A stretch of 64,000 nt of DNA, from the IMG/VR virus record IMGVR_UViG_3300036766_001530. One strand, given 5' to 3'. Positions 6,329-54,662 of the stretch are shown here, piece by piece. The position numbers were made by a program, and so were the translations under genes. The notes below the pieces were generated by a model. The model did not search any database, had not been told where the DNA came from, and was given only the letters and a program-made list of their open reading frames with translations. Numbering within the stretch: position 1 is the first letter of the stretch; every line of letters starts with the position of its first letter. Origin of the DNA: an uncultured virus (IMG/VR IMGVR_UViG_3300036766_001530) (taxonomy: Duplodnaviria > Heunggongvirae > Uroviricota > Caudoviricetes).

Positions 6329-6663
6329 GTGAGTCGCGGAGCGACGAACTCCGGCTCCGGTCCGGGCTGGCGACCAAGTTTCTCATCGGAAGAGCGGTCC
6401 CGTGACGAGGAGAACGAGTATCAACCCAAGAACGACGCCACCGAGGATGAAGGAAAGGAGTCTGATCGTGGCGATCTTCGAGGCGAGTCGCTCGATCAAC
6501 CACCTCCTGGAATCCAGGCGCTCCAGGATCTCAGCCCAGAGCGACAGGATGTCGTTCTTCGCCTCGGGGTGAGTGGCGACGAGAGCCTGCGTGTAGATGT
6601 TGAACAGGCGAGCGTCGTCGAAGTCGGCCCACGAGTCGCCATTCCCGGGCTGGTTCTTGGCTA

Positions 6664-6951
6664 TCATCGCCACGTCTCCGAGTGATCGTCGCGTTCGTTG
6701 GTGAAGTGTCCGGCGAGTGGGTACGCGGAGTATGGAACGCCATCGAGACGCTCGACCAGAGGATGCGGCGACAAGGGAAGAGCCGGGTTGATGCCCAGGC
6801 CGGTCGGCCAGAAGACGGTGAGACCGGCCTTGCTCTCACGAAGCTCCACGACCGAGTTGACGATCGCTGCGATGGGGCAGAGGCGATCCGGATCATCCCT
6901 GGTCGGAATGAGGACCCAGTAGCGCACCGACATGCCGATGTCGACGCCCAT
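6664..6951 (-). CDS. Hypothetical protein, tandem paralog A
   Basis: Shares SVRxW...PIxAIVNSV...KAGLTVFWP...ERxDGVP...HFT with the adjacent ORF. Confidence 0.7.
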   Translation of the reverse strand: MGVDIGMSVRYWVLIPTRDDPDRLCPIAAIVNSVVELRESKAGLTVFWPTGLGINPALPLSPHPLVERLDGVPYSAYPLAGHFTNERDDHSETWR

Positions 6952-7223
6952 TACCGGGACGCCTCCGGGTACTCTTCAGACGGATAGGTGAAGTGCCTGT
7001 CGACAGGATGGTCGGAGGCGGGCACTCCGTCGATGCGCTCCGTAGCCGCGTGAACGAACTCGTAGTCCGATGGCCAGAAGACGGTGAGGCCGGCCTTGAC
7101 CAAACCCGACGTGGTCTGGACCGAGTTGACGATCGCGACGATCGGCCTGATCCGGGCCGGATCTTCCGCAGTCGGAGCCGGAATCCAGAAGCGGACGGAA
7201 TCCCCGAGGGCAACCCGCATCAT
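6951..7223 (-). CDS. Hypothetical protein, tandem paralog B
   Basis: MMRVALGDSVRFW...KAGLTVFWPS; paralog of 6664-6951. Confidence 0.7.
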   Translation of the reverse strand: MMRVALGDSVRFWIPAPTAEDPARIRPIVAIVNSVQTTSGLVKAGLTVFWPSDYEFVHAATERIDGVPASDHPVDRHFTYPSEEYPEASR

Positions 7224-8334
7224 GGTCACCCTCCTCGCCCTGGGTATCCGGCACACCCGACCGGAAGCGGCTTGCGAGCGAGCCGCGCTCGGTAGAGCAG
7301 CATCCAGCGACCCTTCGGCACGTCGCGCACGTAGCGCCTGAAGTCGCGGGCGCGGACGTGGCGACACGGCTTCATGACGTCGACGAGTATCAGGCCCGAC
7401 GGTGGGTAGTCGTAGTAGCCGACCCAGCCGCAGCCCGGCGACGCGCACTGGACGTAGGCTCGCCTGTAGCCCTTGCCCACCTTCGGCAACTTCACCTTCG
7501 GTAGCGTCGCGTCGAGGAGTTCGAGTTCGACGATCTTGTAGAAGCCGATCGCTTCGAGAAGTCGACGCAGTTCTGGCCATGCCAGATTGACGGCCGCCCT
7601 CCGGAATGCCTCGTAGGCCGGGCCGGCTGCGAGATTGAGAGCAGAGTTCAAGATCCCTCTCTCCCGGCGCCGGAGACTCCTTTCGATGTTGTGGAGCTTG
7701 CGCATCACTTCTTCCCGAGCGTGAGGTTCGTGATCTGGAGGAGCACGGCTTCCGACCTCCGCAGGCGTGCGTTGTCGGCCTTGAGCGTCACGATCTCGAC
7801 GCGAAGGATCTCGATTTCGTTCGCGGCCGAGTCGCGGTACGGGGACGTGAGATCGTGCTTGGCCTCGGCGATGTGCGTCGCGATGTTCTGCTTGCACTCG
7901 GCAAAGGCCTCTGAAAGCGGGCCGAGCCCGGCATCCAGCCTGGCCTTCTTGATCTTGGCGAGGTCGCGGCGCATTTGCCGCTCCTCCCCGAGCCGGAAGC
8001 ACTGGTAGCAGAACCCCAAACCGATGAGCACTTGTGTAATGAGGAGGATCATTCGCTCTCGATGACCTCGGGGTAGTCCTTCTTGTGCTGCTTCGCTCTC
8101 TTCTCCATCTCGGGTTCGAGCTTCTCGACCATCTCCTTCGCGAGCTTCTGCATGGCGATCGCCTCATCGTGCTTCCCAGCCTCGAAGAGTGCGGTCGCCT
8201 TCGTCCTGAGGAAACCGGCTGCCGCGTCGAGTCCGGGCGAGTGACCTTCGAGATAGCTCTGCGTCCGGATGTGGTCGTACGAGTACCGGACGTTGGCCTC
8301 GTCGGTCAGGATGGTGTCGCGGCTCATATTGCCA

Positions 8335-8374
8335 CGATGCAGAATACATCAATTCGCATATCAGCCAACCTTTC
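8335..8374 (-). promoter_or_regulatory. Class II promoter copy 1 (GAAAGG-TTGGCT-16-TATTCT-GCATCG)
   Basis: Near-identical 40-mer at 17356-17395; lies just upstream of the ORF starting at 8327. Confidence 0.65.
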
Positions 8375-11300
8375 TTCGTCCTTCGTCGTCGCTTTGGCAG
8401 CCGGGGCCGCAGACGATCCGGTGAAGACGCATGCCTTCCGGACACCGAATCGGAGCGGTATCCGGCCTCTCCCCCGGAGGACTGCACGTCGGACAGGCGT
8501 TGACGTGCCTCGCGTACGCAACTCCAGGAGGGAGGTCGGCGCCAGCCTCGGGAAGATTGGCGTCGGTCTCGATCGCCCCCACGACGCCCCCGCACCGCAG
8601 GCACACGCCAACCTGACCATGAGCATCCGCGCCGCAGCGAAGACACTTGCCCGAGGTGCGCAGGCTCATGGTGAGCCGCGAAGCGGCGAACTCCGCTCCG
8701 TCCTTCCGGAACGAGGGTCCATGGCTAAGTACCCTTCCCTCTCCTGAGTGGGTACCAGGTAGCCGACGCCTGACTCGCCGCCAGCTCGGCGACGTGTCCC
8801 CTGACGAAGAGAACCAGCGCCCCCTCTTCGCCTCGGCCCATGACCGGGCACTTGCACCTCGGGCAACCGAACGGGAAGAGATCGATCGCCCTCGCCAGGA
8901 AGCTGCCGCACCGGCTGCACTCGACGAGCACCGGCGCTTCGCCCCCGTCTCCCGAGAACTGCCGGACGATGGCCGCTGGTCCGTCTATGAGCAGGTGGTC
9001 ACCGAGATCCCGGCACTGCTCGGGCGTCATCTTGACGCTCGCCGACAATCGCGATCCTGGAACAAGGACCGTGAGGCTTGTGTAGAGGGTCTTGATGAAC
9101 GGCTCGCCCTTCGACCGATCGCCCTCGTCGAATCCGGCCGAGGCGGTCTCGACGGCTCCTTCCTTCATCTGGAAGATCACTCGACGATCTCCAGTTCCTC
9201 GGGCATGTAAGCGTAGCGAAGATTGCTCGGCTGCCATCGCACGTCGACCTCGGGGCCGATCTTGCCGTGATCGAGCATGTCGCCGTCGTTGTGGTAGTCG
9301 ATGAAGCCCTGCACGATGCCGACGCAGTTGCCGAACTCGATGATGTGCCCGACGCTGCTGACCCGCATCCGGGTCTTGAACTCGACCGTCATGCGCACCT
9401 TGTCCCCCTTCCTCAGGGGCGACGGGGGTACCGGGCGCAACTGCTTCACGAGGAGCCGGATGCCGTCCGGATCGTCCTTCGCGAGACAGAAGTGGTAGCC
9501 CGGGAAGGTGACTTCGAGAGCGTTGGAGGCCGCCACCATGGCCGTCTGGAGACCGTGCTCATTCGTTCGCCTGGCCGCGTCGCTCACGATGAGCGCGACG
9601 GTCTCCATCGTATCGAGTGAATGATCCTGCGAGCCCTCCATCTTGAGCTTGGGAGGATCGCGAAGAATCTCGACCACCGAGCGCGACGGAGGCCCCTCAC
9701 TGACGATCACGATCCCTTTCTTGTCCCGGTTGCTCACCGCGAAATGCGAAGCGGCGAACTCCGCTCCGTCCCTATTGGTCCGAGAATCAGCTTCGTCTGG
9801 GCGATGAGGTTGCGTGTCTCCTGTTCGGATCTGCGGCGCCCGAGCGCCGCCGACACCCGTCGCCGGACGGCCGGAGACCAGCGCGGGTAGCCGAATGGCC
9901 CCTGGATGTCGTCGGGCGTCTTCGGTAGCCAGGTGGGAGCGCGACGAGCCATCAGAGCCACGCCCTGGCCGAGCCGTCTTCCTCGACGAGCTGATCTTCC
10001 ACGATGGGCGTCCCGTGGCTCGGAGGCGTCTTGTCTGGGTCGTAACCCTCACAGGCCAGGTGAACCACGGTCCGGACCTCGCCGCCGCCGGCACCATGGA
10101 AGCCGGGCCAGTGGATCGAACGCCCGACCATGGCGGTGAGAATCGGCTTCCGCGTCGTCTTGCACCACCACTTGCCGTCGGAGTCTCGCTCGCCATGAGA
10201 CTTCAGCCACTCGATCTCGGACTTGATGTACGGGTATGGCATCAGCGAACTTCCCTCCTCATCGGAGCAACCGATCGATGATCTTGCCGAACTGCCGGCG
10301 CTGCCACGCCACGGCCGCCTTGTCGTTGATGTCGGAGTGGATGTACTCGCCGAACGCCTTGATGATCCGGGCGCACACCTTGAGGTCGGCGCGCTCCTTC
10401 TCCGTCAGGCGCAGCTCATCGAGCGAGAGCTTGAGGAGCGTGTCGACCGCCCCGGTTCCCTCGGCGGAGAGCGCCTCGATTTCCTTGACGTCAGCCACCG
10501 GCTTCCTCCCTGGAAACGGGCTTCCCGCACAGCCCGTCGATGATGAGCCGCGAAACGGCGAACTCTGCTCCGCTCCGCTCGGCTCCGTTCCGACCTGTCA
10601 TGTACGGCATCGGCTACTTCTCCTTCCGTTCCATGAGACCGGCGTCGATGAGGAGACGACGAATCGAGGCCCAGACGAAGACACCCAGGACGATGAGAGG
10701 CCAACCGAGCGGGCGAACGATGTAGAGAAGTCTCCGCGGCAGCCCCCTTTCGTTTTCGGGCACCGTCGACCAGGTCTCGATCGAGACGAGCCCGGCCATG
10801 AGCAGTCCGAGAAAGTAGAGCAGGGCTGCCAGCCCGCGCCAGAAGGCAACCGGATCGCGAACCGGATTCATCAGGCTGCCTTCTTCCGTCGACGCTCGTC
10901 CGCGATCTCTTCGATATGAGTGCGCGGCCGTTGCGGCCGTCCGGGGCCTCTGGCTTTTCGGACCTTCCTTCGGATCGGAAGCAGCGTCACCACCCTGACC
11001 CGGAGCCACTCGCCATCGTCTTCGTGGAACTCGACGTCGTGAGCCTTGGCCGCCCACTGGCCGTCCACGCGGTCGTTGGCCTGGTACTTCTTCATCGGAC
11101 CCTCGCGACGATCAGAAATGTAGTGCGTCAGGATGTGCCCGCACTTGGCGCAGGCGAGAGCGTAGAGGCGAGTGGTGGGCTTCATGATCTTCATCAGTTC
11201 AACCATGCTTATCCGGTTGACGCACTCGCTCTGGAACTCACGCTGCGGCGCAACCGCGCTGCCAAAAGAACGGCAGTCAACGTACCCGTAGCGCTGCCGA

Positions 11301-11582
11301 CGAATGCAGCGAGGCTATAGGCGAGATGATTGATGGGCGAAACCGCGAAACACACGACACCGAGCACGATGCTAACGAGCAGTCCTGCGCCAGCAATCGT
11401 ACGTGTCGTAAATCTCGGCGCCCAGCGTTCAATGGATGTCATCGTCATCACCTCATCGGGTTTTGAATGAGTGTCCTGGTGTGTCAACCGGATAGTCATG
11501 AGTTCAACCTCGACGGTGAGCCGCGGAGCGGCGAACTCCGAGTCCGATCTGGACTCAGAGCCGCCGCCCCACCCCCATTGAG

Positions 11583-12904: not shown

Positions 12905-14197
12905 TCATGGCGCGTCTCCTGGGTCCACGAAGATCCGGGGCGGCGCGGGATTCGATGGTGGTGGTGGTGGTGGTGGATTGGGAGGTGCCGCGACCTCGCC
13001 GGGCATCGCGAATGGTCGGAAGCTCGGCGGTCCGTAGAGCTTCTGGAGCAACACGTCATACTGCTTGTAGACCTCCAGCGCCGAGGCGTACCTCCGGTGC
13101 GGGTTCATGATGAGGCAGCTCTCGATGAGGTGGGCGATCGGCCGAGGCACGCTGTCCGGCAGCGTCTCCATCTCGATGTCGCCACCGTGCAGGTAGATGG
13201 CGATCTTGGCAGCCATATAGACGTCGGTGGCCGGCGTCGCTGGCAGCTTCTTGCGCACCTCCGGCGCGTAGAAGCTCTCGAACCACGGCACCATGGCACG
13301 CAGCGGCGACCCGGCCGGCACCGAGTAGCTCCAGTCGAGGAGCTTGCCGCCGTGATCGACCGGGCGGACGAGCAGGTGGTCGGGCAGGACAGCGCCATGC
13401 ACGATGCCCTGCTGGCCGACCCAGGCCAGCACTTCGAGCAGGCGCCGCCACATCCAGGCCGCGTCGCGTGGTTCGAGGCCCGAGGGGAAGGCCCGCAGGA
13501 CCTCGGTTGCGGTGTGGGTCTCGACGTGACGGCGGACCACGACCGCCGGCCGGCGTACTCCACCGACGTCGATGTCGGCCGCTTCGATGAAGCGCGGCAG
13601 GTACCTCCGGAAGTGCTCGTGGCCCTCGAAGGTCGAGACGGCGAGCTGGCGCAGGATCTTGACCTCGTTGGAAACGAGATCCCGGTCCATGGGGCTCCGG
13701 GCGATCTTGATGACGACCGGGCGGTTCGGCTTGCCGTCCGCGTCCGGCAGCATCGCCCGCGCCGAGTAGACGTCGCTGATGTCCCCCGCGGCAAGCACCG
13801 TCACCTCGTCGTAGATGTTGCGGCCGAGCTTGATGACGACATTCGCGGCGACGTGCCGCTGGCCGTAGGTGCCGGCGGCAATCTTGGCCTCCGCCTGCGA
13901 GCGCAACTCGGTGAGGCAGGCCATCGCGTCGGCCTCCTCCTTGCCGTTGCCGAGGACGTCGGGATGGAGCTTCATCGCCAGGCCCTTGAAGACGACACCG
14001 AGAGCCACCTCGGGAGCCGTTATGGCGCGATCTCCCCCGAGATTGCCGAAGACGTCTTCGGGGCAACGGGCCTCGTAGGCTGCCCTGATACCAGCTTCGA
14101 TCGTGGCCAGTGTGAGCCGCGGAGCGGCGAACTCTGGTCCGGGTCCGGGTCCGGACTTCGTATTCTTGCCCGAACTTTTCTTCTTCGAGGGAGCCAT
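12905..14197 (-). CDS. Ser/Thr protein kinase-like protein with N-terminal J-domain-like region
   Basis: LAMKLHPDV (HPD), VVIKIA, IVHGAVLPDHLLV, LLDWSY, YAPEV, TDVY; hairpin repeat in frame near the N-terminus (PEFAAPRLT). Confidence 0.85.
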   Translation of the reverse strand: MAPSKKKSSGKNTKSGPGPGPEFAAPRLTLATIEAGIRAAYEARCPEDVFGNLGGDRAITAPEVALGVVFKGLAMKLHPDVLGNGKEEADAMACLTELRSQAEAKIAAGTYGQRHVAANVVIKLGRNIYDEVTVLAAGDISDVYSARAMLPDADGKPNRPVVIKIARSPMDRDLVSNEVKILRQLAVSTFEGHEHFRRYLPRFIEAADIDVGGVRRPAVVVRRHVETHTATEVLRAFPSGLEPRDAAWMWRRLLEVLAWVGQQGIVHGAVLPDHLLVRPVDHGGKLLDWSYSVPAGSPLRAMVPWFESFYAPEVRKKLPATPATDVYMAAKIAIYLHGGDIEMETLPDSVPRPIAHLIESCLIMNPHRRYASALEVYKQYDVLLQKLYGPPSFRPFAMPGEVAAPPNPPPPPPPSNPAPPRIFVDPGDAP

Positions 14198-17100
14198 CAG
14201 GGAAGCCTCATCAGCCGCAGGTTGGCGGCGGCCATCTCTGGGTTGCCGGCCTCGATCGCCTTGAGCGCCTGGGTCAGGTGATCCTTGTTCTTCCCCTCCT
14301 CGTACGTGTCGATACGGCGTGGATTGTCGGTGTCCATCTTGCGAGCGAACCTCACATGGTTCATCGCAACATCGACGACGTTCTGCTTCACTCGGTCAGA
14401 TTCTTCCACGACGTGCAGTTCGAGCGCGTTCTCCATGAGCTGAACGTAGTTCGAGTAGAGGAGCAGGACGTACGACCGATCGAAGCCGGAAGCCGCGCCG
14501 CCGCTTTCGAGCGTCCGTCGGATCTCGTCGATGGCCTTGCTCATCACTTTCCACCTTTCCGCCCGCGCAGAGTGCGCGACTGTGAGCCGCGAAGCGGCGA
14601 ACTCCGCTCTGATCCTGTCCGGACCTTCCCGGTTCGCAGCGTTCGCGATCTCATCCAGCGCTTGTAGGCAACCATCGCGCGGGCGTAAGCCTCGGAGGTT
14701 GCGTGCAGGTTGTGTTGCGCCGTGATGAACTTCTCGTCGGTGAATCCCTTGCTTGCGGTGCGCCGGCCGAAACCGTAGGTCTGCGCCGCGATGAGCAGGG
14801 CCGCCCGAGAGTCAGCGAGGTTCGTGAGGATCGTGGCCATCGACTTCGGCTTCATGTCGGCTCCATCTTGTGATCTACTGACTTGTGATCGAGCCCGAGC
14901 ACGCACGACGGACTTTCGCAGGCTATCCGAAGGCCATCGGTCACCTCGGCGATAACGATGGAACCGCCTTGCCCCCTGACCGCCGCCATGAGCTGGTCGC
15001 TCTTGTCGAGCCAGACCGCGACGATCGTGCCGCGCCGCGTGTGCGTGCGGGAGTGTCTTCCGGCACCGCGGGTGACGAGATGGACTCGCTCGCCGACGAG
15101 ACCCGTAGCAAGCGCGCTCATGGAGCCGACGCTCCCTTGAGATACTTGAGCTTCGCGATCTCGGCCCGAGCCGCGTCGAGCGCCGTCCAGGCCGCACCGA
15201 GCGAGTTGAGGACCTTGAACACGTCGTCTCGGTAGAATTTCAGCGCCCCGTACTTGGTCGCTGTCTCTCGAAGCAGCTTCGCGCACTCGCGATCGGCTTT
15301 CTCGGAGACCTCCGCGCCAGCGAGCGACCGGCGCTCCTGTTCGTCGCGCTCGATTCGCAGGGCTATCAGTTCCTCGATAGCTCCGGCGAGCTTCCCGGTG
15401 ATGTCGTCGCGGTGCTCTGGAGTACCTCGCAGCAGATTGGCCCGGACGTACGACAGAGCTGCGCTTAGCTCGAACAAGGTCGAGTGCATAGGAGCGCTCA
15501 CTTCTTCGAGCCCTTCCGCTTCTGCTTCGCGTCGTAGTGGGCAACCGTCTTCTGGAGGCGACAGATCGTGAAGGTGAGCGTCGTCGCGTGTATCGCGATC
15601 GTCTCCGCATCGACGAGGTCGTACCCGCGGCGCTTCGCACGCAAGCCGATCTCCTCCATCGTCTTCTGGACGAGCTTCGCGAAGCTGGCCCCTTCCTTGG
15701 TCCACTGGCCGGACTCCGAGGTCCAGAGCCGAGTCGGCTTCTTCATGGCGAAACCGCCTTCCCGGTGATGGCCCGAAACAGCTCTTCGTCGCCCGAGTCG
15801 GTGGAGGCCCACGACGGCCATGGACTGCGCAGCAGATCCTCGCCGTAGAGCTGAGACTTCGATCGAGCCCAGGACCTCGCGGCGCGTACGATCTTCGCTT
15901 CCGCTTGGTGCTTGGCCTTGCTCGTCATCCTCCGCCTCATGTCGCACTTCGCGATTGGAATTCGCTTCTGGCGATGTCGAAGATTGCCTGGTAGCCGACA
16001 GGGTCGGCCTTTGGCCAGGACGTACCGAAACTGATGCGCTGAGGCTCGCGGCCGATGAACGTCGCAGCCTGGACGTCGGCCAAAACGACATCACCGCAAG
16101 GACGCTCGCTGACGACGACGGCGACCAGGTGAGGATCTCCGCTACGGCTTCCGTGAAGCCAGAAGTCGCCAGCCCATGATCGCGCTCTGTGACGAACCTG
16201 GGGCCTACTCATCCCGATCACCCTCCTCACCAGCCTCGTACGCGATGCAGTCGCACTCGGTGCAGGCAGTCGATCCAGGGTACTTCGGATCGTGACCATG
16301 CTCCTCGACCGCGTGACCGCAGACGCAGGATTCCATCCCGCTCGCGGCCGGTGGCGGAGCTGGCACGCTGGAGGCGTCGAACCTCCCGTAGAGGCCGCTT
16401 GTGACGACCTTCCTGGGACGAGCGTGCGCATGCTTCATCGCGGCCGTCGCAGCCTCGGCCGTTCCCGTCGGGCGAGCAAGCTCGGGCAAGAAGTCCGGGC
16501 TGTCGAGAAGCACCTTCTTCACCTTCTCCGCGCTCCCGGACCGAACGGCCTTCGCCACGTCCCGGCCGAGCTTCCCCGTCGGCTTCCATCCTGCCAATCC
16601 AGAGGACCGGCGTTGCTTGGAGACGACCTTCTTGGTCATAGAGGCCAGCCCTTGGAAGGGAGGTGTTGCAGCTTTCTCTCCGCAGCCTTCCCAGCGTTGA
16701 ATTCGCTCGACGCCTCTTGCATCAGCTCCAGTGGCATCTCGTCCCACTTGGCAAAGCCGTACTTGCTCGCCATGTCGTCCTTGTAGTCGGCGAAACTTGT
16801 CTCCGGATTTGCCTGGCACTCCGCACCCCAGTAGTGGGCGGCGTGCTTCGCCTTGTCGCGATCGATCACGGGCTTCCTGGTCGGCTTCTTGGTCGGCTTC
16901 TTGACCGACTTCCTGATGGACGTCTTCGTCATCGTCCAGACTCTTCGCTCGAACGAACGCTCATCACCCCGCCGCACACGCCACAGGTTCCCCGAACTGG
17001 AACATCCCGGGTGCCGCAGCGCTGACACTGAGAGTGATCGGAGCCATCGACCTCGACGCTCTTCCCGAGAATAGCGAGAACGGTGTCGACCACGTCATAG

Positions 17101-17941: not shown

Positions 17942-18139
17942 TCAGGCGACTCCCGCCTCTCCGAAAACGGCTCGACGCACGTAGGCCGACACGGAGAGGT
18001 TCTCGGCCCGCGCGAGCTGGCGGAGCTTTGCCCGCTCTTCGAGCGTGAGGCGGATGGCGACGATCGGTGATCCGCGCACATAACGCGGCTTCTTCGTGGT
18101 GAGCCGCGAAGCGGCGAACTCCGCTCTGGGTCTGACCAT
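17942..18139 (-). CDS. Small ribbon-helix-helix (MobC/CopG-like) DNA-binding protein
   Basis: IVAIRLTLEERAKLRQLARAENLSVSAYVRRAV; contains an in-frame repeat. Confidence 0.65.
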   Translation of the reverse strand: MVRPRAEFAASRLTTKKPRYVRGSPIVAIRLTLEERAKLRQLARAENLSVSAYVRRAVFGEAGVA

Positions 18140-18840
18140 CACGCAACTTCTTTCCTCAGCGACGCCACGAACCCCGCGTTCCAGGCATTTCGGCACGCGG
18201 CGAGGAAACCAGTGCAGGGCGGCTTCCGATAGGGGTTGTCGAGATCCGAGGCGTCCGCCCGATGGGCGGCGACGCCCTTGACGAAGACGCTCCGCAGGCT
18301 CGGGCTGCGCGGATAGGCTTTCGTCGCAGCTTCTTCGACCGTCGGCTTGCCGGGCGTCTCGGGTGGCGACGGGTAGAGCGTCGTCTTGAGGAAGCGCAAA
18401 AGCCCATCGTGTTCCTCTGGCCAACCGGCCCAGTATCCCGAGCCGCCGACCGCGGTTGGGTCCCACCCGAGCAGATGGATGCGGTTGAGATCGACCATCT
18501 TGTCCTTGCTGGTTGGCAGCCATTTGCCGATGAGGAGCGCCGGCACCGGCGGCTGCCAGTTCGAGAACTGCTTGGCCGCGTTCGCCCGGGCCTCCTCGAT
18601 CGAGATGATGGGCGACGTCGGCCGCACGTCGCTCTCCGTGAACCAGAGGCAAACGCCAGTGGGGAAGACCGTGAGCCGCGAAGCGGCGAACTCCGGGCCC
18701 CCTCCGGTCCGGGCGAAATTGGTAACCTGATGAGCGAAGAGCGAAACCGCCGCGTAGCCGGCGTTCTGCCAGTGCAGGGCCGCGAGGGCCTCGTCCGGCG
18801 TGAGCCGCGAAGCGGCGAACTCCGCTCCGGTCCGGCTCAT
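18139..18840 (-). CDS. Hypothetical protein with two in-frame repeat insertions
   Basis: GAEFAASRLT and PEFAASRLT in one open frame; C-terminal NPY...AWNAGF motif. Confidence 0.55.
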   Translation of the reverse strand: MSRTGAEFAASRLTPDEALAALHWQNAGYAAVSLFAHQVTNFARTGGGPEFAASRLTVFPTGVCLWFTESDVRPTSPIISIEEARANAAKQFSNWQPPVPALLIGKWLPTSKDKMVDLNRIHLLGWDPTAVGGSGYWAGWPEEHDGLLRFLKTTLYPSPPETPGKPTVEEAATKAYPRSPSLRSVFVKGVAAHRADASDLDNPYRKPPCTGFLAACRNAWNAGFVASLRKEVA

Positions 18841-25298: not shown

Positions 25299-25336
25299 GA
25301 AAATGGTGAGCCGCGGAGCGGCGAACTCCGCTCCGG

Positions 25337-42976: not shown

Positions 42977-44331
42977 TTCACAACGCCACGCCTGGCGAAT
43001 CGTCGTCAGAGCCCCTGACCCGGCCGGTCACTTCAATCTCCCAGCGACCGACCATCATCTCGTACGACATCGGATCGACTTCGTAGCCGAGCCGTCGCGC
43101 CATCTTCGCGACCGAATCGGGGTTCGGCACATGATCCACGAAGTAGGAACCGATATCGGGGGTGTCGTCGGGAAACGGCACCTCCTCGATCCGACCTCCC
43201 GGATGGACGAGATGAATCCCGTACCACTTCACGTAGTTCTCGACCGTGACGATCGTCGTCGTCGTCGGCAACGGCGGTCCCTGGTAGACCAGCGGCAGGC
43301 TGCGGTCGCTAAGCCTCATCAGGCCGCCGCCATCTTCTGGCCGATCCAGGTTCCGATGATGAGCCTTGTCGTTGGCGTCGGTCCACGATCTTCCATCGTC
43401 CCGACGATCTGCATCGCCGATGGCTCCGGGCACTCCGGGTTCGCGCAGGTCAGATGACCATCCGAAAGTACGGTAAACGCGCCGGTCGTAGACTCGCACG
43501 CTTGGCACTTGATTCCGCTTCGCTCTCCGAAATTCATGGTCACCCTCCACCAAATGAACACCCATCAAGGCATCCTCCCTTGCCACCACAGGCCGGACAG
43601 GCCATGGCTTCAGGAGCAATGGCCGGGGGCCTGCCTACCTGGCGCCGCAGATCGCCTGCCGGTATCCCGTTGCGGCTCTCGGCGTCGAGCTTCGCTTCCT
43701 CGACCGTCAGGATGCGGTTGATGGTTGCCGAGGGAAACGTCTTCTTCACCCGCGCAATCGCGCAAGCCAGCTCGGGCCCGCCGAGGTTCGCCTCGGCCGC
43801 CGCGTCGAGCGCGTCGAACTCGGCGTAGGAGAAAGCGATCTCGCCGGCTTTCTGGCGAGCAACGGCCACCGCCTCGGGGCAGATGAACGCCTCGCCGATG
43901 CCGGGCAGGTCGGCGGCGAAGGTTGGTGGGCGATCGCTCACGAGAACCACGTCCCCACCGAGTCCAGCTCCCAGATAGCAGCGGCTTTCTTCGCGATCTC
44001 AGCGAACTCGGCTCCGGTGTACTCCCGGCCGCACTCGTCGATGACGATCGGCTCCCGCCACTTGTCGAGACACGTCCGCATAACGGTGAGTCGCGAAGCG
44101 ACGAACTCCGGTTCCGCTCCGCTCCGGAACGATCTCATAGCGCGTTCCTGGCAATTCCAAAGTAGTCGCGCAGCCGGTCGGCGAGACCCTTGGCCATCTT
44201 GAGATCGAGGTTGAACTTCTGCCTCACGATGTTGATGAAGTGCATCGTGTTGCTGCCGTTTTCGAGGAGCCCCAGCTCGTCGGAAGTGAGCTGCGGCAGG
44301 TAGAGGTTGAGGACCTGCTCGTCGGTCGTGG

Positions 44332-44805: not shown

Positions 44806-47290
44806 GGCCCCTCCGTCGGGTGAGTCGCGGAGCGACGAACTCCGTCTCCGTTCTGCTCCGGATCACTCATGGCAGCTTCATGACCGGAATCCCAGTTGCC
44901 CGTGAGCCATGCTCGTGGCAGTAGAAACGCACGCGCGTGCTCTTGAACCTGACTCGGACCTTCGCGTTCTCCGGACAGTCATCGTCGTCGCAGCCGATCA
45001 TGTCGGCGGCGTCGTTCGGTTGGTTGAACCGAGAGACGCTTTCGTGCTCGGCGGCCGACTCGGCGAGCGCCAGCGCGAGCCGGCGCGCGACGATGTACTT
45101 GCCGAGCGCCGAGATCGTCATGGACTGGTTCTCCGTGTAGGCGCCGCTCAGCGTCCAGACCTTCTCCTCAAACTTGGCCGGCGACTCGAAGACCTCCACC
45201 CGGGACTGGAGGTTGTCGTCGATGGCAATTCGGATCTCACTGGTGATGGAAATGATCATGGTGAGTCGCGGAGCGGCGAACTCCGCTCCGGTCTGGTCCG
45301 GCCTCCGTATGACTTTTTCATCTTCTCTCCTTGAGTGAAAACCGGGCTACCTGCGCCTACCCGGGTGCGGCATCCCCTGCGCATAGGGTCTCGACGACGA
45401 ATCGTCGAACAGCCGGGTCATCGGGAGGCAGACCCTCCAGATGACCTGGGTGTTCCACGACCTTGAGCGCCGTCCGGTCTCTCAACGGTTCTCCGCGGTT
45501 CGGATCTGGGAGGCTGTCTCCCCATGGTGTGCTTCGATCGGAAGGATACCTCGCGTACTGCATGTAGTAGTTCCTGACCTCGTGCCCGCGGCCGGTGCGG
45601 CACCAGACCGGCTGACGGCAACCGCTGCCGTTCATCCACCCGATGAGGACGACGTCGCCCGACAGGAAGTGCTGGCTACGATGTCGAATGATGCCGAGGC
45701 CGCACCTGACGCCGAGCCCCTCACCCTTCTCCACGTCCGACCAGCCGTCGTGCTTGAACAGCTCGACCGTTCGGGTCCAGCGGCCGGTGGCCCCCAGTGG
45801 TCGACCCTTGCGTCGGATCTTGGCGGTGAGCCGCGAAGCGGCGAACTCCGTTCCGGTCCGGCTGAAAGCCCTCTGCTTGAGCCGCGTGATGCGCCTGAGC
45901 ATGGACGGCAGATCCGTCATCGTCCCTCCAAGTGCGAGCGCGACCTGGGTGATGACGTAACCGCCGTTCTTGTTCTCGCGGCGCAGGCGTTCGATCTCGC
46001 GGACGTCGAAGGACGCCTCCTTACCCCACCGATCGAGACTCAGGGGCGCCGGCTTCACCGAAGCGAAGGCTTGCAGTGCGGCGACGAAGTAGGCGTCGAC
46101 CTTGTCGGCGTGGCAGTGGACCTCCTGAAGCTTGAGCGCCGGCCCCCACGAGCCCGAGATGATCGCGTGGCCGGTGCCGTCGCGGTGCGCGAGCCGGAAG
46201 GCGCCGCCCTCCTCCAGCTCGACCGAGAGGGCCTCGCCCCGGAACGTGAAGTCGAGCTTCAGCATTCGGCAATCTCGGTGAGCGCGTGGAATGGGTTGAA
46301 CGTCTTTGTCGAGACGTGAAAGCGTCGACCCTTGCTGGGGGCGATCTTGCGACCATCCGGATCTACGACCTTCATCCTCTCCGGCAACGGAGCGAGGCGA
46401 GCATCGGCCTTGAGGATTCCGATCTCCCCCGGCTGGACTTCGAGCGTGGTGGCGTCGATGAGTTTCACGGTGGCGCAGGCCCATCCCCGATTCCAGGGCT
46501 GCACGAGATCCGACGCGCGCCGTTCGCGATCTGCTTCGTCTCGTCGAAGGAAGTGCATTCCATCACAGGGACTTCATGTGAGTTTTTCGTTCGGCCTTCC
46601 TGAGACGGGCCTCTTGTTCGGCCGCCGCCGAGCGTGTGTAGCGGTCGATGAAGTTGCACAGGTCCCAGGGCACCTTGCTGTCGAGAAAAATTGGAGTGAG
46701 AGCCTCGTCGATGCGCTTGAGCAGCGACAGGCCCTTCCTGGTGATGCCGCAATCGAAGGCAATCTGCTGGAGCCGCGTGCGAGTCATCACCATCTAGCCC
46801 TTGACGCGAGCCACGTTGGCCAAGATGGGAAAGTCGCCATCCTTCTTGATCTGGGAGGTCTCTTCCGGGCTGAGGCTGCGCAGAGCCACGTTCAGATCGA
46901 AAATCTCATTCGGTGCCACGACAATCTTTCCGATCTGGTCGATGTCCGGAGAGTGGCAGATGAGTCGAAGCCCGATCTTCTCCAACATCTCCTTGCGTCG
47001 TGGAGACGAGGACGCGAGGACGAGATCCGGCGCCGGCATCGTGACGATGCCGGCGCGCTCGGGCGGCGACTTCTCAACCAGCGCCGCCAGCTCGGCGTCT
47101 CGCGGGACTTCTTCATCCATCTCGGTCTGGTGAAGGCCCGCCCGGGCCCGAAGGTGCGATCCGATGGAAGGGTGCCCTTCCTCGGCTGCGTCTCGCAACA
47201 GCTTGTCCGTCTCCTCGTGCGAGTCCGGAACCTTCGGGAGGACGAACCCCTTGTTCCTCTCGACGAGGATGCCGTCGCAACGGATCTTCT

Positions 47291-50392: not shown

Positions 50393-51599
50393 GGGTCAGT
50401 TCGACCCGTAAAAGGTGACTCTCGGATCTTGAAGCTCCTCCGCGAACTCGACGAGCTGGCTTGTCCACTTCTTGTAGTAGTCGAGCGTGTTGTGCCCCGC
50501 GAGGTGAAAGCACTCGCGCTTGAAGTGCTCCATCGGGATCGCGAGCCGCTCGTGTTCGTTCTCGCGGTGCCAGACTTCGCCGGCAATCGGCTCGGCGCCA
50601 CCGAAAGCCCAGGCCGGCGTCGCATCGCTCGGCATCTGATCGCGGTACGGCTCGACGAACTGTCGGTAGGCTCCGAAGTCGAAGAAGTAGTAGCCGCGTT
50701 CGAGCTTCTCGACCTCGGACGAGTACGCCTTGACGACGTCGAGGAAGAGCTGGCGATCGATCTGAGGAGCCTTGTCGTAGCACCAGCGGTTGATGACGAA
50801 CCAGAGCAGACTCGCTGGGTGGGCCGTCTTCGGATACTTCTCCTCTTCGCTCGCCACCTCGTCGTGAGCCTTAGCTCGCTCGACGAGCACGTCCAGGATC
50901 TTCGCAGGCAGCTTGGCGTTGTCTTCGATCCACTGGCAGAGCCCGTAGGGATTCCGCAGCCAGTTCATGCGGTGACTTTCGCCTTTGGCGGTTTCGAGAT
51001 GGATGTCGAGGCTCATGATGAAATCCAGGCTACCAGAAAAGTGATGCGATGTGATGGAAAAAGCATCACCCCTCCCTGGCCGGAGCCAGGGAGGGACCTT
51101 GGTCTGGCTCCTGCCCTACGCCGCCTTGAGCTTCGTCGCCAGAGCAACCGCCTGGCGCAAGCCGTTCTTCGCTCGCTCGACCTTGACCTTCTTCTTGTCG
51201 CCGGCCGAGAGCGAACGGAGATTCCCGATATAGCGCCCCTGAAGGACGTTCTGGGCATGCTGCTTCGCCGAGCGGAGCGTGGTGATCCTCGCCGCCGCCT
51301 TGTTGTGGCCGTTGCCCTTCGGAGCCTCGGGGCCGAAAGCCTGCCGCAAGGCAGCCTCCGCCATCCGACGAGCCTCCGACTGGATGGCCGTCTCGATCTC
51401 GATCGCGAACTTCTGGACGATCTCTGATCTGGTCTGTGTGGGGGACGTCTGCATGATGACTCTGACCTTTCTCCGCATAAGTGCGGTGAGGCCAGACTAC
51501 CATGGTGTGAACTAATAGCTACAGTGAGCCGCGAAGGTGAGCCGCGAAGCGGCGAGTGAGCCGCGGAGCGGCGAACTCCGCTCTGGTCCGGACTCCCGG

Positions 51600-53614: not shown

Positions 53615-53723
53615 TCCACTCACCACTTGCTTGAGAATCTACCACCGTCTCGGTCCGGATCAGAACCTCAAGTGCAGTGAGCCGCGAAGCGGCGAACTCC
53701 GCTCCGCTCCGCCTCCGGTCCGA

Positions 53724-53945
53724 TCAGAATCTCAAGTGCAAGGTCAGAACCGTTCCCTCAGAGACGTCGGCATCGAGCGGCCTCCCCAGCTCCAGCGCCA
53801 CCCCTTCTCTCCGCAGCTCCACCCCCTCCGGCAACTCGCCATCATCCGGGCTCCGAAGCATGCGCCCGATGACGTCCCGTGGCGTATCGCCTGGATGAAG
53901 CTCCAGATCCACTTCAAGTCCCTCGTGAAGCACGGTAATTTTCAT
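53724..53945 (-). CDS. Small ubiquitin-like (beta-grasp) protein
   Basis: MKITV...DLELHPGDTPRDVI...ELRREGVALE...VSEGTVLTLHLRF follows ubiquitin/YukD spacing. Confidence 0.45.
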   Translation of the reverse strand: MKITVLHEGLEVDLELHPGDTPRDVIGRMLRSPDDGELPEGVELRREGVALELGRPLDADVSEGTVLTLHLRF

Positions 53946-53977
53946 CGTCCGCAATTCGATGGTAATCTGTCCCGGCC

Positions 53978-54553
53978 ATGAGCGAAAGCGTGAGTCGCGA
54001 AGCGACGAACTCCGGTCCGGAATCCGGGCTTCTTCCGACTAGACGCGGCTTCCTCGGTGGTCTCCTGGCTCTCGCCGCCGCCGTCGCCCTCCCGTTCAAG
54101 AAGATCGCCGAGCGGCCGATCGAGACCATCCGCCGCATCCGGACGTCCGACTACGTCCGCTCTGGACGTCAGTACGTGCTCGGCTTCGAGCACGTCGAGG
54201 TCGAGCCGGGCGAGACGATCGAGCTGACGGTGCGCCCCCACCTCAACTTCGCTCCCGATCGACTCATCGTTCCGAGCTACCTGGCCGAGAACTTCACGAT
54301 CCTGGACATCATCATCGATCGCGAAAAGCAGTTCACCTCGACAGCCGAAGTACCCGCTTGCATCTTCGCCGAAAACGGCTTCGTCCCTGTCCTCTTCATG
54401 CGCCCGTGCCCGGCCGGCAACCCGATCACCATCAAGGTCAGAAACATCAGCCGGCAGCCGGCGGCCTTCGTCGCCGCGATGGCGGGTGAGTGCCTTGAGC
54501 CCGCGAATCACGAGGGTCCGACCCGCCCCGGGATGACGCCGGCCTACGTGTGA
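53978..54553 (+). CDS. Tat-signal-bearing protein
   Basis: TRRGFLGGLLALAAAVA twin-arginine motif; repeat in frame at the N-terminus and a repeat-derived TGA stop. Confidence 0.6.
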   Translation: MSESVSREATNSGPESGLLPTRRGFLGGLLALAAAVALPFKKIAERPIETIRRIRTSDYVRSGRQYVLGFEHVEVEPGETIELTVRPHLNFAPDRLIVPSYLAENFTILDIIIDREKQFTSTAEVPACIFAENGFVPVLFMRPCPAGNPITIKVRNISRQPAAFVAAMAGECLEPANHEGPTRPGMTPAYV

Positions 54554-54662
54554 GCGTGAGCTGCGAAGCAGCGAACTCCGCTCCGGCTCCGGGCTTCTTC
54601 CGGCCTCTGAAACTTTTTCCTTGACAGCTTCGTAGCCGCGGTTCACCGTGAATATGCTTTCA

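Follow-up and report, generated by a model that had tools for sequence, protein, structure and literature searches.

The window analysed here comprises 64,000 nucleotides of a 118.9-kb contig from a large, GC-rich phage that has 30 tRNA genes. Its genes lie nearly all on the minus strand from 586 to 53638, and beyond 53763 the 30 tRNAs and 10 ORFs occupy the plus strand. Scattered through both parts is a repeat of 35-70 bases with a very stable mini-hairpin at its head, whose layout over 51 copies in the window is [G/A]TGA + 5-bp stem + GNA loop + GAACTCCG + (NTCCG)n. The 28-nt cores are near-identical across copies. At its 5' end the element is exact ([A-N-G] GTGA), whereas at its 3' end it runs into a microsatellite tail with a variable number of 5-7-nt NTCCG units; the information content (50 copies) falls at -4 and fades beyond +35.

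A 25-mer search allowing up to 3 mismatches finds 47 copies (45 plus, 2 minus; 0 expected), and the copy at 63770, two truncated copies of 19 nt and the copy at 38859 bring the aligned hairpins to 51. Exact searches recover all three stem versions described in an earlier note on this DNA: GCCGC-GNA-GCGGC 33 times (32 plus, 1 minus) against 0.14 expected from shuffles, GTCGC-GNA-GCGAC 13 times (12 plus, 1 minus) against 0.02, and GCTGC-GAA-GCAGC once, at 54560. The GTCGC-type match at 36422 lacks both the GTGA head and the GAAC tail and is likely to be a palindrome that arose by chance, leaving 12 copies with the GTCGC/GCGAC stem. These correspond to the 12 positions given earlier, which mark the G of GTGA; the one placed at 21301 is a real copy, but lies on the minus strand at 21303-21330. 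The loop had been described as GAA or GGA, which holds for 34 and 15 of 50 copies, respectively, and one copy has AAA. Copy spacing is irregular (19 to 5711 nt), and the first 6.3 kb of the window are free of the element.

Location of the copies

Copies outside or at the edges of genes, those in the tRNA block and the partial copies come first (stems are given by the 5' arm or both arms, followed by the loop):

6329..6356 (+): GTCGC/GCGAC, GGA; between upstream minus-strand gene stop and sigma70-like promoter TTGACG-17-TATGCT
8671..8698 (+): GCCGC, GAA; adjoins ATG (+1) of minus-strand ORF; read through by a short upstream ORF that stops within ATGA
10543..10570 (+): degenerate, ATGA head, closing pair broken (GAA-A); between two minus-strand ORFs
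11516..11543 (+): GCCGC, GGA; intergenic, 16 nt ahead of minus-strand ORF ATG
21303..21330 (-): inverted, GTCGC, GGA; just past stop of gene 21327-21671 (-)
23360..23387 (+): GCCGC, GGA; flanked by 21-nt imperfect direct repeat (18/21) that takes in the gene's ATG
25306..25333 (+): GCCGC, GGA; between upstream gene's stop and sigma70-like promoter
30259..30286 (+): GCCGC, GAA; 5' leader, between promoter and ATG of ParB-HTH gene 29412-30236 (-)
32914..32941 (+): GCCGC, GAA; between upstream gene and sigma70-like promoter
33342..33369 (+): GCCGC, GAA; close to gene start, placement ambiguous
35600..35618 (+): partial, 19 nt (head, hairpin and GA), fused to the next copy
35619..35646 (+): GCCGC, GAA; intergenic
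38859..38875 (+): head and hairpin only, no tail; C.A mismatch at pair 2
40039..40066 (+): GCCGC, GAA; between RecT-like gene stop and next gene's start
44820..44847 (+): GTCGC, GGA; 14 nt ahead of GTG start of nucleoside 2-deoxyribosyltransferase-like gene
45261..45288 (+): mixed arms GTCGC/GCGGC (T.G), GGA; adjoins ATG (+1) of gene 44867-45259 (-); read through by a short ORF that has a GGAG of its own
51524..51536 (+): partial, 13 nt (GTGA to loop and one G), in tandem with 51537..51555
51537..51555 (+): partial, 19 nt, tandem
51556..51583 (+): GCCGC, GGA; intergenic
53677..53704 (+): GCCGC, GAA; divergent intergenic region, flanked by 32-nt imperfect direct repeat
54556..54583 (+): GCTGC/GCAGC, GAA; 3 nt past stop of gene 53978-54553 (+)
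56972..56999 (+): GCCGC, GAA; between tRNA-Trp and tRNA-Ser
57630..57657 (+): GTCGC, GGA; adjoins 30-nt 5' tRNA fragment, followed by TAGAAT and ORF 57691-57981
58448..58475 (+): GCCGC, GGA; flanking 20-nt imperfect direct repeat (17/20)
58677..58704 (+): GCCGC, GAA; directly ahead of tRNA-Thr
60306..60325 (+): partial, degenerate, ATGA head, one base inserted in stem
60326..60351 (+): partial, two 13-nt units in tandem
60352..60379 (+): GCCGC, GAA; first unit of a ~68-nt tandem duplication that ends within the first 16 nt of tRNA-Glu
60420..60447 (+): GCCGC, GAA; flank is a 19-nt exact (31-nt imperfect) repeat, tRNA-Glu 5' end
60568..60595 (+): GCCGC, GAA; flank is a 15-nt repeat (1 mismatch), second tRNA-Glu 5' end
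61011..61038 (+): GTCGC, GAA; flank is a 16-nt exact repeat, tRNA-Pro 5' end
61136..61148 (+): partial, 13 nt, tandem
61149..61176 (+): GTCGC, AAA; ahead of tRNA-Ser
62368..62395 (+): GTCGC, GGA; between two tRNA-Val genes
63770..63797 (+): ATGA head, GTCGC, GGA; after tRNA-Asp, flanked by 26-nt imperfect direct repeat

Other copies are associated with reading frames:

14112..14139 (+): GCCGC, GGA; about 20 codons into kinase-like gene 12905-14197 (-), which has no start codon after it; read EFAAPRLT
14582..14609 (+): GCCGC, GAA; last codons of upstream minus-strand gene, stop 35 nt beyond
18099..18126 (+): GCCGC, GAA; first codons of NikA-like RHH ORF 17942-18124 (-)
18671..18698 (+): GCCGC, GAA; in frame, internal to gene 18139-18960 (-)
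18800..18827 (+): GCCGC, GAA; first codons of gene 18139-18960 (-)
19725..19752 (+): GCCGC, GAA; first codons of NUDIX/NrtR-like gene 19085-19783 (-)
20000..20027 (+): GCCGC, GAA; in-frame ATGs 24 nt before and 4 nt after
22119..22146 (+): GTCGC, GAA; first codons of gene 21724-22200 (-), frame ERSSSLRDSP
24990..25017 (+): ATGA head, GCCGC, GAA; complement gives in-frame ATG to gene 23654-25096 (-)
27824..27851 (+): GCCGC, GAA; first codons of minus-strand ORF, start coupled as TGATG
28691..28718 (+): GCCGC, GAA; first codons of gene 27885-28832 (-), frame ERSSPLRGSP
31090..31117 (+): GTCGC, GAA; first codons of minus-strand ORF, read EFVASRLT
35042..35069 (+): GTCGC, GGA; in frame within ORF 34728-35267 (-)
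35283..35310 (-): inverted, GCCGC, GAA; last codons of ORF 35264-35569 (-), open sense frame
40199..40226 (+): degenerate, outer pair broken; in frame EFSAPRLT, C-terminal extension of RecT-like gene
41742..41769 (+): GCCGC, GAA; core of 23-aa in-frame insertion in RecT-like gene
41903..41930 (+): GCCGC, GAA; first codons of RecT-like gene
44086..44113 (+): GTCGC, GAA; in-frame ATGs 24 nt before and 4 nt after
45826..45853 (+): GCCGC, GAA; in frame, internal to gene 45357-46265 (-)
53990..54017 (+): GTCGC, GAA; codons 5-16 of plus-strand gene 53978-54553, sense, read VSREATNSGPES

At least 20 copies are in frame within ORFs, mostly in the first codons; nine have the sole available start codon upstream, and another five lie in the interior of ORFs. 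The frames of the ORF-embedded copies are unequally used (13:7:1, p = 0.006), which implies that these copies are translated.

Strand specificity and conservation of the hairpin

The element is strand-specific. Plus-strand copies account for 49 of the 51 (binomial p ~1e-12), with 13/13 in the plus-transcribed tRNA/gene block and 35/37 where genes run minus, and the GNA loop is present on the plus strand only. The element in sense orientation has a stop codon in just one frame, and its complement is stop-free in all frames; since a sense stop in one frame permits a bias of at most ~1.5:1, the strand bias goes beyond stop avoidance. Because the copies keep to the plus strand in both gene-direction blocks, a role in the sense of the transcript is unlikely. 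The earlier note had proposed recognition as folded single-stranded DNA of the plus strand. The strand count and the plus-only GNA loop favour this proposal; no binding protein, nick site or single-stranded intermediate was seen in the window analysis. The GC skew of the plus strand is negative throughout the window, unlike a classical lagging-strand template, which counts against copying as single-stranded DNA.

Covariation across all aligned copies bears out the claim of a folded hairpin, as both variable stem pairs change in a compensatory manner. In the 51-row alignment (49 distinct rows), 98.8% of cells are paired; among the distinct rows, pair 2 is C-G in 35, T-A in 12, T-G in one and unpaired in one, and pair 3 is C-G in 48 and T-A in one. 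Both sides change in 13 cells, a level reached by 0/500 shuffles, although these 13 represent only two independent events, each amplified afterwards. Single-arm changes occur in four copies (10543, 40199, 45261 with T.G and 38859 with C.A), all singletons. Double changes prevail by copies (13 versus 4) and single changes by events (4 versus 2). The inner GC-GNA-GC is invariant apart from two degenerate copies. Conservation of the small hairpin through compensatory change is supported, on only two independent double changes. With the DNA parameters of ViennaRNA, the small hairpin is not the top-ranked fold for the GCCGC type. A larger alternative palindrome is unsupported (73.7% paired, matched by 483/500 shuffles).

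The copies are recent insertions

Orthologues of 60-86% identity lack five of the copies at the corresponding place, so these five are insertions; the comparison was between proteins, and an empty site was not observed as DNA. In the RecT-like gene, copy 41742 makes up a clean 23-aa insertion, and 7/7 homologues lack it. At copy 41903, the RecT-like gene has 9 more residues than the 60%-identical P0003. The orthologue P0123 (85% identical) lacks copy 45826, for a net gain of 7 aa in the phage, and P0124 (86% identical) lacks copy 18671, for a net gain of 11 aa; at the site of copy 18800, P0124 reads MNPKMVSS against MSRTGAEFAASRLTP in the phage. The net gains of 7 to 11 aa are smaller than the element, so in some cases target bases were replaced, or else the flanks diverged. 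These absences, together with the T-A variant common to 12 dispersed copies, support the earlier proposal that several subfamilies have been amplifying.

Significant flank repeats of 15-33 nt ending at GTGA accompany only 7/48 copies, vary in length and are equally readable as tandem duplications. In addition, identical partial copies of 13 and 19 nt recur in tandem at five loci. The flank-repeat pattern matches no known transposition chemistry cleanly. IS200/IS605-type single-stranded DNA transposons have hairpins at both ends and a fixed target tetranucleotide and leave no target or flank duplication, unlike the phage element.

Apart from the phage, a single JGI metagenome contig (L001, bacterial) contains the exact 24-nt pattern, even though two of the orthologues originate from JGI, and the pattern was not found in the IMG/VR contigs or species genomes searched. 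The near-identical cores and the near-absence of this pattern elsewhere indicate recent, lineage-specific spread.

Related elements in bacteria

The 19-nt head and hairpin, by comparison, are also found in families of repeats in Acidobacteriota and in Planctomycetota, with 53 copies in one Acidobacteriaceae MAG (0 for a control pattern) and inverted doublets in Planctomycetota. The nearest phage relative has an acidobacterium as its host. Y1 transposase genes are common in the motif-carrying bacterial genomes, but the motif lies within 1.5 kb of one at only 1/12 loci inspected.

No Rfam family matches the phage element, even at E <= 10 across 18.5 kb holding 20 copies. Several of the bacterial loci found with the 19-mer, however, are matches to Acido-Lenti-1 (RF01687), a family of unknown function whose taxa agree with the likely host range of the phage. 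Its 3' hairpin (a 5-bp covarying stem with a UUC/UCC loop, C before and U after) is the reverse complement of the phage hairpin. The phage copies are without its first 8-bp hairpin and linker and give no model match, and a GTGA head is not a general feature of that family.

Possible mechanisms of spread

The reading that we favour, with moderate confidence, is of a short mobile DNA that is non-autonomous, has multiplied recently in the lineage of this phage and is copied at the level of single-stranded DNA. New copies would be made as single strands by a putative enzyme that recognises the GTGA head and the folded plus-strand hairpin and may nick at the junction immediately 5' of GTGA; recognition of the folded plus strand would explain a near-single-strand distribution regardless of gene direction. 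Copies would survive only where they leave genes unbroken, such as first codons, surface loops and tails of proteins, gene/promoter spacers and tRNA spacers. The stop-free complement would allow minus-strand genes to read through the element, and the slippery tail may restore the reading frame. No transposase, HUH nuclease, reverse transcriptase, integrase or phage RNA polymerase is found among the 114 ORFs scanned in this window of the contig. For a virus, about 50 copies in genes and at gene boundaries are an exceptionally large burden of DNA that appears to be selfish.

Several known mobile palindromes are comparable. The REP/GTAG repeats, served by RAYT (TnpA-REP, Y1 HUH), likewise have a short GC-rich hairpin, a conserved tetranucleotide at its 5' foot and a high copy number; they are recognised as single-stranded DNA in studied cases and occasionally lie within genes (PMC3733652). 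The Planctomycetota doublets add to this likeness. The phage element differs in its tag (GTGA/ATGA, not GTAG or the degenerate forms given in that source), its stem of only 5 bp, its single rather than dimeric units, its one-strand rule, its microsatellite tail and its phage host; in addition, ORFs contain over half of its copies in the gene-dense part, and a RAYT gene is not seen in the window. Rickettsia palindromic elements are selfish, in frame in unrelated protein genes and read through (PMC10969869). They are bacterial, of ~150 bp, with a conserved peptide in one frame, and strand specificity is not reported for them; the phage element, in contrast, is 35-70 nt long, read in at least two frames and found mostly in first codons. 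IS200/IS605 elements and their palindrome-associated derivatives show hairpin-dependent single-stranded transposition with a replication-fork orientation bias (PMC6006769).

Spread without a dedicated enzyme, through template switching or recombination at the stable hairpin during phage replication, is in our view unlikely. It would yield direct-orientation copies and local tandem duplications, and the copies might go on to assist gene shuffling as portable modules for boundaries or recombination, much like the promoter-stem-loop cassettes of T4-type phages. The tandem units of 13, 19, 35 and ~68 nt with a common junction fit this account, as do the retention of orientation expected of same-molecule copying, the location of most copies at gene boundaries and the RecT-like annealing protein encoded by the phage; the tail is the reverse complement of the GGA-form loop and 3' arm, which hints at fold-back copying. 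However, the junctions examined show no microhomology, and the copies are scattered across 57 kb with unrelated flanks. The head and hairpin are also multi-copy in unrelated bacterial genomes, which points to a shared recognition module and not to a replication accident of one phage.

The likeness to promoters of phage N4 that the earlier note had pointed out proves closer than claimed. The early promoters of the N4 virion RNA polymerase function as folded single-stranded DNA; a spacer of 4 nt separates the P2 template hairpin, GAAGC-GGA-GCTTC, from +1 (PMC13492108), the polymerase reads -8G, -10G and -11A/G (PMC4496689), and mini-hairpins are present at primase and N4 polymerase sites (PMC13037366). 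The phage hairpin equals P2 at every stem and loop position save -6/-7 and their partners, the sole variable positions among the phage copies, and the two share stem length, GRA (GGA/GAA) loop, GCGRAGC, -8G and the 4-nt spacer. The copies might be working N4-type initiation sites spread as mobile DNA, a reading to which we assign a low probability. The plus-strand hairpin, extruded or exposed, would be bound by a phage primase or single-subunit RNA polymerase, and RNA would start at the base immediately 5' of GTGA and run leftward. This RNA would be either a transcript or the primer for discontinuous DNA synthesis, much as at the mitochondrial light-strand origin and the G4/RSF1010 ssi signals. 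Leftward initiation is the sense direction of the minus-strand genes, an ATG lies within 4 nt of the predicted start in six copies, the predicted start is the junction where flank and tandem duplications join, and priming would account for a strand rule independent of transcription. A promoter role is nevertheless a misfit for the 20 or more copies within ORFs, including the nine with their sole start codon upstream and the five more that are internal, and initiation at thirteen copies would run antisense into tRNA genes and plus-strand genes. The base at the '+1' place of the template is C in 13/50 and G in 27/50, and N4 requires C. The irregular spacing and the copy-free first 6.3 kb also count against it, as does the dispensability of the examined copies, which are missing from relatives at 85-86% protein identity. 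N4 has three promoters ahead of early genes, as against more than 50 copies here, often within ORFs or against tRNA genes; and this phage has sigma70-type promoters and a sigma-like protein, with no T7/N4-like polymerase or primase in the window.

Least probable, and by our estimate very unlikely, is that the element acts as RNA, tuning translation or message stability or serving as an Acido-Lenti-1-like small RNA: the minus-strand message (CCGGA)n-GGAG-UUC-hairpin(UUC loop)-UCAC does flank start codons, just before or after them, in the sense of 35/37 copies in the minus-gene part, with GGAG 21 nt ahead of ATG in three copies (~8 nt once the hairpin is looped out, which would bring GGAG close to the start codon), the Acido-Lenti-1 hairpin modelled on the same strand with a UUC loop and the mixed-arm copy giving a G.U pair in RNA, but 13/13 copies in the plus-transcribed block are opposite in sense, positions relative to the start codon range from -60 to +60 nt with five copies deep in ORFs, Rfam gives no match, and the orthologues manage without the element.

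Copy number and structure of the hairpin repeat

About 3% of this phage DNA consists of one small repeat, with roughly one copy per 1.3 kb. The earlier note had described a repeated hairpin with three stem types, and pattern counts over the window confirm it: GCCGC-GNA-GCGGC occurs 33 times and GTCGC-GNA-GCGAC 13 times (0.14 and 0.02 expected by chance, respectively), and GCTGC-GAA-GCAGC occurs once. One of the 13 GTCGC matches, at 36422, is without the flanks of the element and is probably a chance palindrome. A 25-mer search at three mismatches gave 47 matches in the window and none in shuffled sequences. Alignment of the 51 hairpin-bearing copies (49 on the plus strand and 2 on the minus strand; each is named here by the coordinate of the first base of its head) yields the consensus A-N-G, GTGA, GCCGC-GAA-GCGGC, GAACTCCG, (NTCCG)n, the head being GTGA in 48 copies and ATGA in 3. 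Information content is raised at -3 (A in 31/50 copies) and -1 (G in 27/50), comes close to its maximum between GTGA and +24 and has faded by about +35. Among 50 copies, 34 have the loop GAA, 15 have GGA and one has AAA; the tail consists of a variable number of 5-, 6- or 7-nt units that often end near TCCGAT(T)C.

The folding of the element into a hairpin is supported by covariation. The 5-bp stem is paired in 98.8% of alignment cells, whereas slid controls pair at 15-60%, and none of 500 shuffles reaches the observed pairing or covariation. Stem pair 2 is C-G in 35 copies, T-A in 12, T.G in one and unpaired in one; stem pair 3 is C-G in 48 and T-A in one. The prediction that changes in both arms should outnumber changes in one holds when cells are counted, with 13 double-change cells, but these trace back to only two events, against one-arm changes in four singleton copies (10543, 40199, 45261 and 38859). 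One-arm changes that occur as singletons are expected if only hairpin-competent copies multiply, but independent events are few.

A larger palindrome, in which the loop and 3' arm pair with the tail, is possible and is favored by ViennaRNA for the GCCGC type; it was rejected as the conserved fold because covariation does not support it and every GTCGC copy disrupts it. The folding parameter set appears to give the GNA mini-hairpin no extra credit, and DNA folding energies do not separate the two strands. The tail CTCCGCTCCG (for example, at 27844-27858) reverse-complements CGGAGCGGAG, a sequence overlapping the hairpin in its GGA-loop form together with its 3' arm, so that the element is an imperfect larger palindrome around CGAACT. 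Since covariation gives no support to this palindrome, it may be a trace of the origin of the tail. Copies 53990-54045 and 54556-54610 have a common 15-nt extension after the tail, TCCGGGCTTCTTCCG. The extension recurs on a run X1 contig that is not part of the window, suggesting that a longer subfamily exists.

Genomic context of the repeat

The window is phage DNA with a G+C content of 63.6% and is part of a 118.9-kb source contig. Phage-typical genes in it include those for RtcB, a sigma-70-like protein, a ParB-HTH protein and a nucleoside deoxyribosyltransferase, among others. A codon-usage model trained on long ORFs assigns almost every gene from 586 to 53638 to the minus strand. For the region past 53763 it predicts ten plus-strand and three minus-strand ORFs, and the tRNA genes lie in this part as well:

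54971-63708, plus strand: 30 tRNA genes

As DNA, the window has no near relative in the phage collection or in IMG/VR, and the exact 25-mer has no match in IMG/VR. Protein-guided scans of IMG/VR gave one locus at 29% identity and nothing further on rescan, and the best named relative of the RecT-like gene (34% identity) is in the 309-kb Tunturiibacter phage Tunturi_5; such repeats occur neither in this phage nor in the 29%-identity locus. Contigs of one sediment metagenome run that cover the window break at repeats, and the listed joints (with sides of 20-51 letters) are at repeats; these contigs are uninformative on the presence or absence of individual copies. Amid the minus-strand gene block lies a PP2C/SpoIIE-like phosphatase ORF (42093-42692, plus strand), alongside which a kinase-like gene at 12905-14197 can be named.

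Evidence for recent insertion into genes

The RecT-like gene carries three copies of the repeat. In an alignment of the RecT-like protein with seven homologues, the best of them 60% identical, a clean 23-residue insertion, VDSGAGGGPEGERSSPLRGSPFE, falls exactly at copy 41742, and copy 41903 corresponds to nine extra residues. The third copy, the degenerate 40199, lies in a C-terminal extension that is missing in the homologues:

40093-40650: C-terminal extension of the RecT-like protein, about 140 residues, with phage zinc-finger domain PF24623, absent from the seven aligned homologues

Likewise, copy 45826 is missing from an 85%-identical orthologue of gene 45357-46265, and copies 18671 and 18800 are both missing from an 86%-identical orthologue of gene 18139-18960. 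Compared with orthologues at the protein level, five copies are frame-keeping insertions, although the net gains of +7 to +11 residues at some of them fall short of the element's length. The full 24-nt core motif is absent from all species genomes searched and is found on only one other JGI metagenome contig, which is bacterial. The orthologues of genes 45357-46265 and 18139-18960 themselves come from JGI contigs, and the expansion thus looks lineage-specific and recent.

The 5' junction of the element is exact, and significant direct repeats of the left flank are present in 7 of 48 copies. These flank repeats are 15-33 nt long, some of them diverged, and end at GTGA or 1 nt from it, with the second copy 32-73 nt downstream; the remaining 41 copies have no flank repeat above shuffle level. 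In three of the seven, the repeat is a copy of the 5'-terminal 15-19 nt of a tRNA gene (tRNA-Glu twice, tRNA-Pro once), with an intact tRNA left in place. Two readings fit the flank repeats equally, target duplication and tandem duplication of a GTGA...X unit; a uniform target-site duplication was rejected on account of the low frequency and variable length of the repeats. The units at 60352 and 60420 are alike over about 68 nt. Partial copies also occur, in a 13-nt form that runs through the loop and one G (51524, 60326, 60339 and 61136) and a 19-nt form (35600 and 51537), each running straight into the GTGA of the following copy. No microhomology was found at the partial-copy and flank-repeat joints examined.

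Placement relative to genes and reading frames

On the minus strand the element reads (CCGGA-like)n-GGAGTTC-GCCGC-TTC-GCGGC-TCAC and is stop-free in all frames; on the plus strand the sole stop is the TGA of GTGA. By our reading of frames for the 38 copies from 6329 to 53677, 20-22 are within ORFs. Nine copies occupy the first 5-25 codons of minus-strand genes with start codons only before the copy, four have in-frame start codons on either side, and two adjoin an ATG, where a short upstream ORF reads through and stops in ATGA. Five are internal to ORFs, two are in last codons, four are in a 5' leader or separate a stop codon from a sigma70-like promoter, and 12 are otherwise intergenic or unclear. 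The sigma70-like promoters form a family, TGTTTGACGTAC...-17-TAnnnT, with six members in the window against 1.2 expected; the hairpin repeat is directly upstream of three and just downstream of two:

6317-6326, minus strand: sigma70-like promoter
25287-25296, minus strand: sigma70-like promoter
30326-30335, minus strand: sigma70-like promoter
32896-32905, minus strand: sigma70-like promoter
38581-38590, minus strand: sigma70-like promoter
41983-41992, minus strand: sigma70-like promoter

Frame usage among ORF-embedded copies is 13:7:1 (p = 0.006), the commonest predicted reading being ..EFAA(S/P)RLT.., and this bias suggests that copies may be translated, with some frames better tolerated than others. 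A protein-level tag, with EFAASRLT as a targeting or cleavage signal, was rejected: the copies are read in two or more frames, and it is the nucleotide sequence that is conserved. In the plus-strand transcribed block, codons 5-16 of gene 53978-54553 contain copy 53990 in the sense direction, another copy follows the stop codon of the same gene, ten are in or beside tRNA-gene spacers, and one adjoins a 30-nt tRNA 5' fragment. This fragment (57601-57630) resembles the 5' half of a long-arm (Leu/Ser-type) tRNA and stops at the GTGA of copy 57630, with no 3' half nearby; tRNA-Leu is absent among the 30 tRNA genes found in the window.

Strand specificity

Of the 51 copies, 49 are on the plus strand, and this orientation prevails in the part with leftward genes (35 of 37 copies) as well as in the part with rightward tRNAs and genes (13 of 13). 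Neither inverted copy is linked to a plus-strand gene: one follows the stop of a minus-strand gene and the other lies in the last codons of a minus-strand gene. The strand rule is therefore not tied to transcript sense. Selection against stop codons was rejected as its source, since an inverted copy would still leave two of three frames open, and the rule must instead belong to the making or use of copies on DNA. GC skew is negative on the plus strand across the whole window and AT skew flips with gene direction; the skews do not identify the direction of replication.

The best explanation for the repeat is a non-autonomous, strand-specific insertion that has amplified recently and is tolerated within genes. 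We infer that folded single-stranded DNA on the plus strand, as the earlier note had proposed, is the recognized form; this reading accounts most economically for the strand rule and for a hairpin geometry like that of phage N4. The evidence points to stop-free complements, N-terminal placement and putative frame repair by the slippery tail as the means by which mass insertion is tolerated. Transposable DNA is described as rare in phages and MITEs as rare in viruses, where they are reported in 0.01% of sequences, and the rarity of phage insertion sequences has been linked to strong purifying selection (PMC11602168). The element thus offers a natural case for viral tolerance of mass insertion and for strand-specific mobility in a phage.

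Likeness to N4-type promoters

C-GNA-G mini-hairpins are described as unusually stable and are found at G4-type and RSF1010 primase signals and at N4 early promoters (PMC13037366). The N4 P2 template oligonucleotide is reported with +1C, a 4-nt spacer and then GAAGC-GGA-GCTTC (PMC13492108), and N4 vRNAP is reported to read -11A/G, -10G, -8G and +1C (PMC4496689). The element is like an N4 promoter in its template-strand hairpin, 5-bp stem (5-7 bp in N4-type promoters), 3-nt G-R-A loop and -8G. All stem and loop positions agree with P2 except -6/-7 and their partners, which are the only hairpin positions that vary in the phage copies. The 4-nt spacer is conserved as in P2, and the duplication junction falls at the predicted '+1'.

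Placement, the +1 base and copy number nevertheless argue against an N4-like promoter role. Unlike N4, with its +1C five bases 5' of the stem, the element has G in 27, C in 13, A in 8 and T in 2 of 50 copies at this position. Nor are the copies upstream of genes and pointing into them, as N4 promoters are: nine lie past the sole start codon, five lie inside ORFs, and 13 are directed against plus-strand tRNAs and genes. No single-subunit RNA polymerase was found among the 114 ORFs of the window.

Alternatively, the copies could be a dispersed array of N4-type single-stranded hairpin initiation signals and not merely tolerated parasites, an idea that combines an origin-like function and mobility in one reaction and that we consider unlikely. 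In this scheme, wherever the plus strand is exposed, the C-GNA-G mini-hairpin would be bound by a single-subunit polymerase or primase of phage or host origin, which would start synthesis at the GTGA junction. Discontinuous-strand priming (or antisense or early RNA) would then be seeded from about one site per gene, and the signal would spread by self-copying from the GTGA junction. A regular spacing, as for Okazaki-type sites, was rejected, gaps between copies ranging from 19 to 5711 nt.

Comparison with known repeat systems

Several known systems can be compared with the tolerated, strand-specific insertion that we favor. REPs are likewise short palindromic units of high copy number (51 hairpins in 64 kb here; 0 expected), and are described as carrying a GTAG-type tag at the hairpin foot and as sometimes intragenic (PMC3733652). 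The GTGA/ATGA head of the element is, however, outside the tag variants listed in that source (GTAG, GYAG/GYRG/GTRG/GTMG/GTGG), and, unlike the mainly extragenic REPs, over half of the 38 copies placed above are in ORFs, five of them confirmed against orthologues. No Y1_Tnp (RAYT) match is present among the 114 ORFs of the window. RAYT adjacency in motif-bearing bacterial genomes was also rejected, the motif being within 1.5 kb at only 1 of 12 Y1 loci.

Rickettsia palindromic elements (RPEs) provide a precedent for palindromic repeats read in frame (PMC10969869), and the phage element is like them in its apparent in-frame insertion into ORFs, as judged from the five copies compared with orthologues. 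An RPE, however, is about 150 bp and encodes one conserved peptide, whereas the phage element is 35-70 nt and uses at least two frames (13:7:1). Unlike IS200/IS605-type elements, which have subterminal hairpins at both ends and no flank duplication, the phage element has a hairpin at one end and flank repeats at some copies. An orientation bias tied to the replication fork is a trait of such elements; the phage element shows a bias of 49 of 51 copies, together with a uniformly negative GC skew on the plus strand. Unlike MITEs, the element has no terminal inverted repeats (only its 5' end is conserved, and neither end matches the other in inverted form) and no fixed-length target-site duplication. 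An intron (GTGAG as 5' splice site), a ribozyme (likeness to the hammerhead core CUGAUGA...GAAA) and a terminator were dismissed, since the tRNA 5' fragments are duplications beside intact tRNAs, the core is without required bases and no T-run follows the hairpin on either strand. Our literature search, mostly at title and abstract level, found no published description of such a repeat in a phage.

Related hairpins in bacteria

The 19-nt head plus hairpin is found at no fewer than 120 loci in species genomes, although by a rough estimate several dozen of these matches might be chance. It is clearly a repeat family within single genomes. In an Acidobacteriaceae MAG (G002), the 19-nt head with the GGA hairpin has 53 copies against 0 for the reversed control, within a conserved unit of about 90 nt (for example, loci L006, L011, L029 and L067) and on both strands (24 forward, 29 reverse). 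The same MAG has 21 Y1_Tnp matches, none of them, by coordinates, within 1 kb of any of the 53 copies. Planctomycetota carry REPIN-like inverted doublets of head and hairpin. This common head and hairpin may help to tie the uncultured phage to acidobacterial or planctomycete hosts.

Several of the 19-nt loci listed are matches to Acido-Lenti-1 (RF01687), a candidate RNA of Acidobacteria and Lentisphaerae (PMC2864571) that a 2026 preprint describes as abundant and of unknown function. Its 3' hairpin is the reverse complement of the phage hairpin. Against the Acido-Lenti-1 model (two hairpins and linker), the window as a whole gives no match at the gathering score, and 17500-36000 gives none at E <= 10; among known RNA families, only tRNAs score above gathering in the window, and nothing relevant appears at E <= 10 in 17500-36000. 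The element raises the question of what reads the C-GNA-G mini-hairpin common to N4 promoters, primase signals and Acido-Lenti-1, and finding the enzyme could give Acido-Lenti-1 a function and yield a compact hairpin-guided DNA tool.

At three bacterial loci, Acido-Lenti-1 matches form inverted pairs with a separation of 130-170 nt and the small hairpin on the outside (L048, 335-532; L085, 376-596; L090, 304-521), and the pair in L048 encloses a doublet of GTGAG hairpins. Paired in this manner, the matches look like MITE terminal inverted repeats rather than a free-standing small RNA. On a bacterial JGI metagenome contig (L001, 440-600), an OmpA-like gene is followed by three tandem 24-nt units, GTGAG-GCGC-GAA-GCGC-GAGCACCC, and then by one unit with the phage core and GAACTCCCC; 7-nt partial repeats ending in GAAG are also present.
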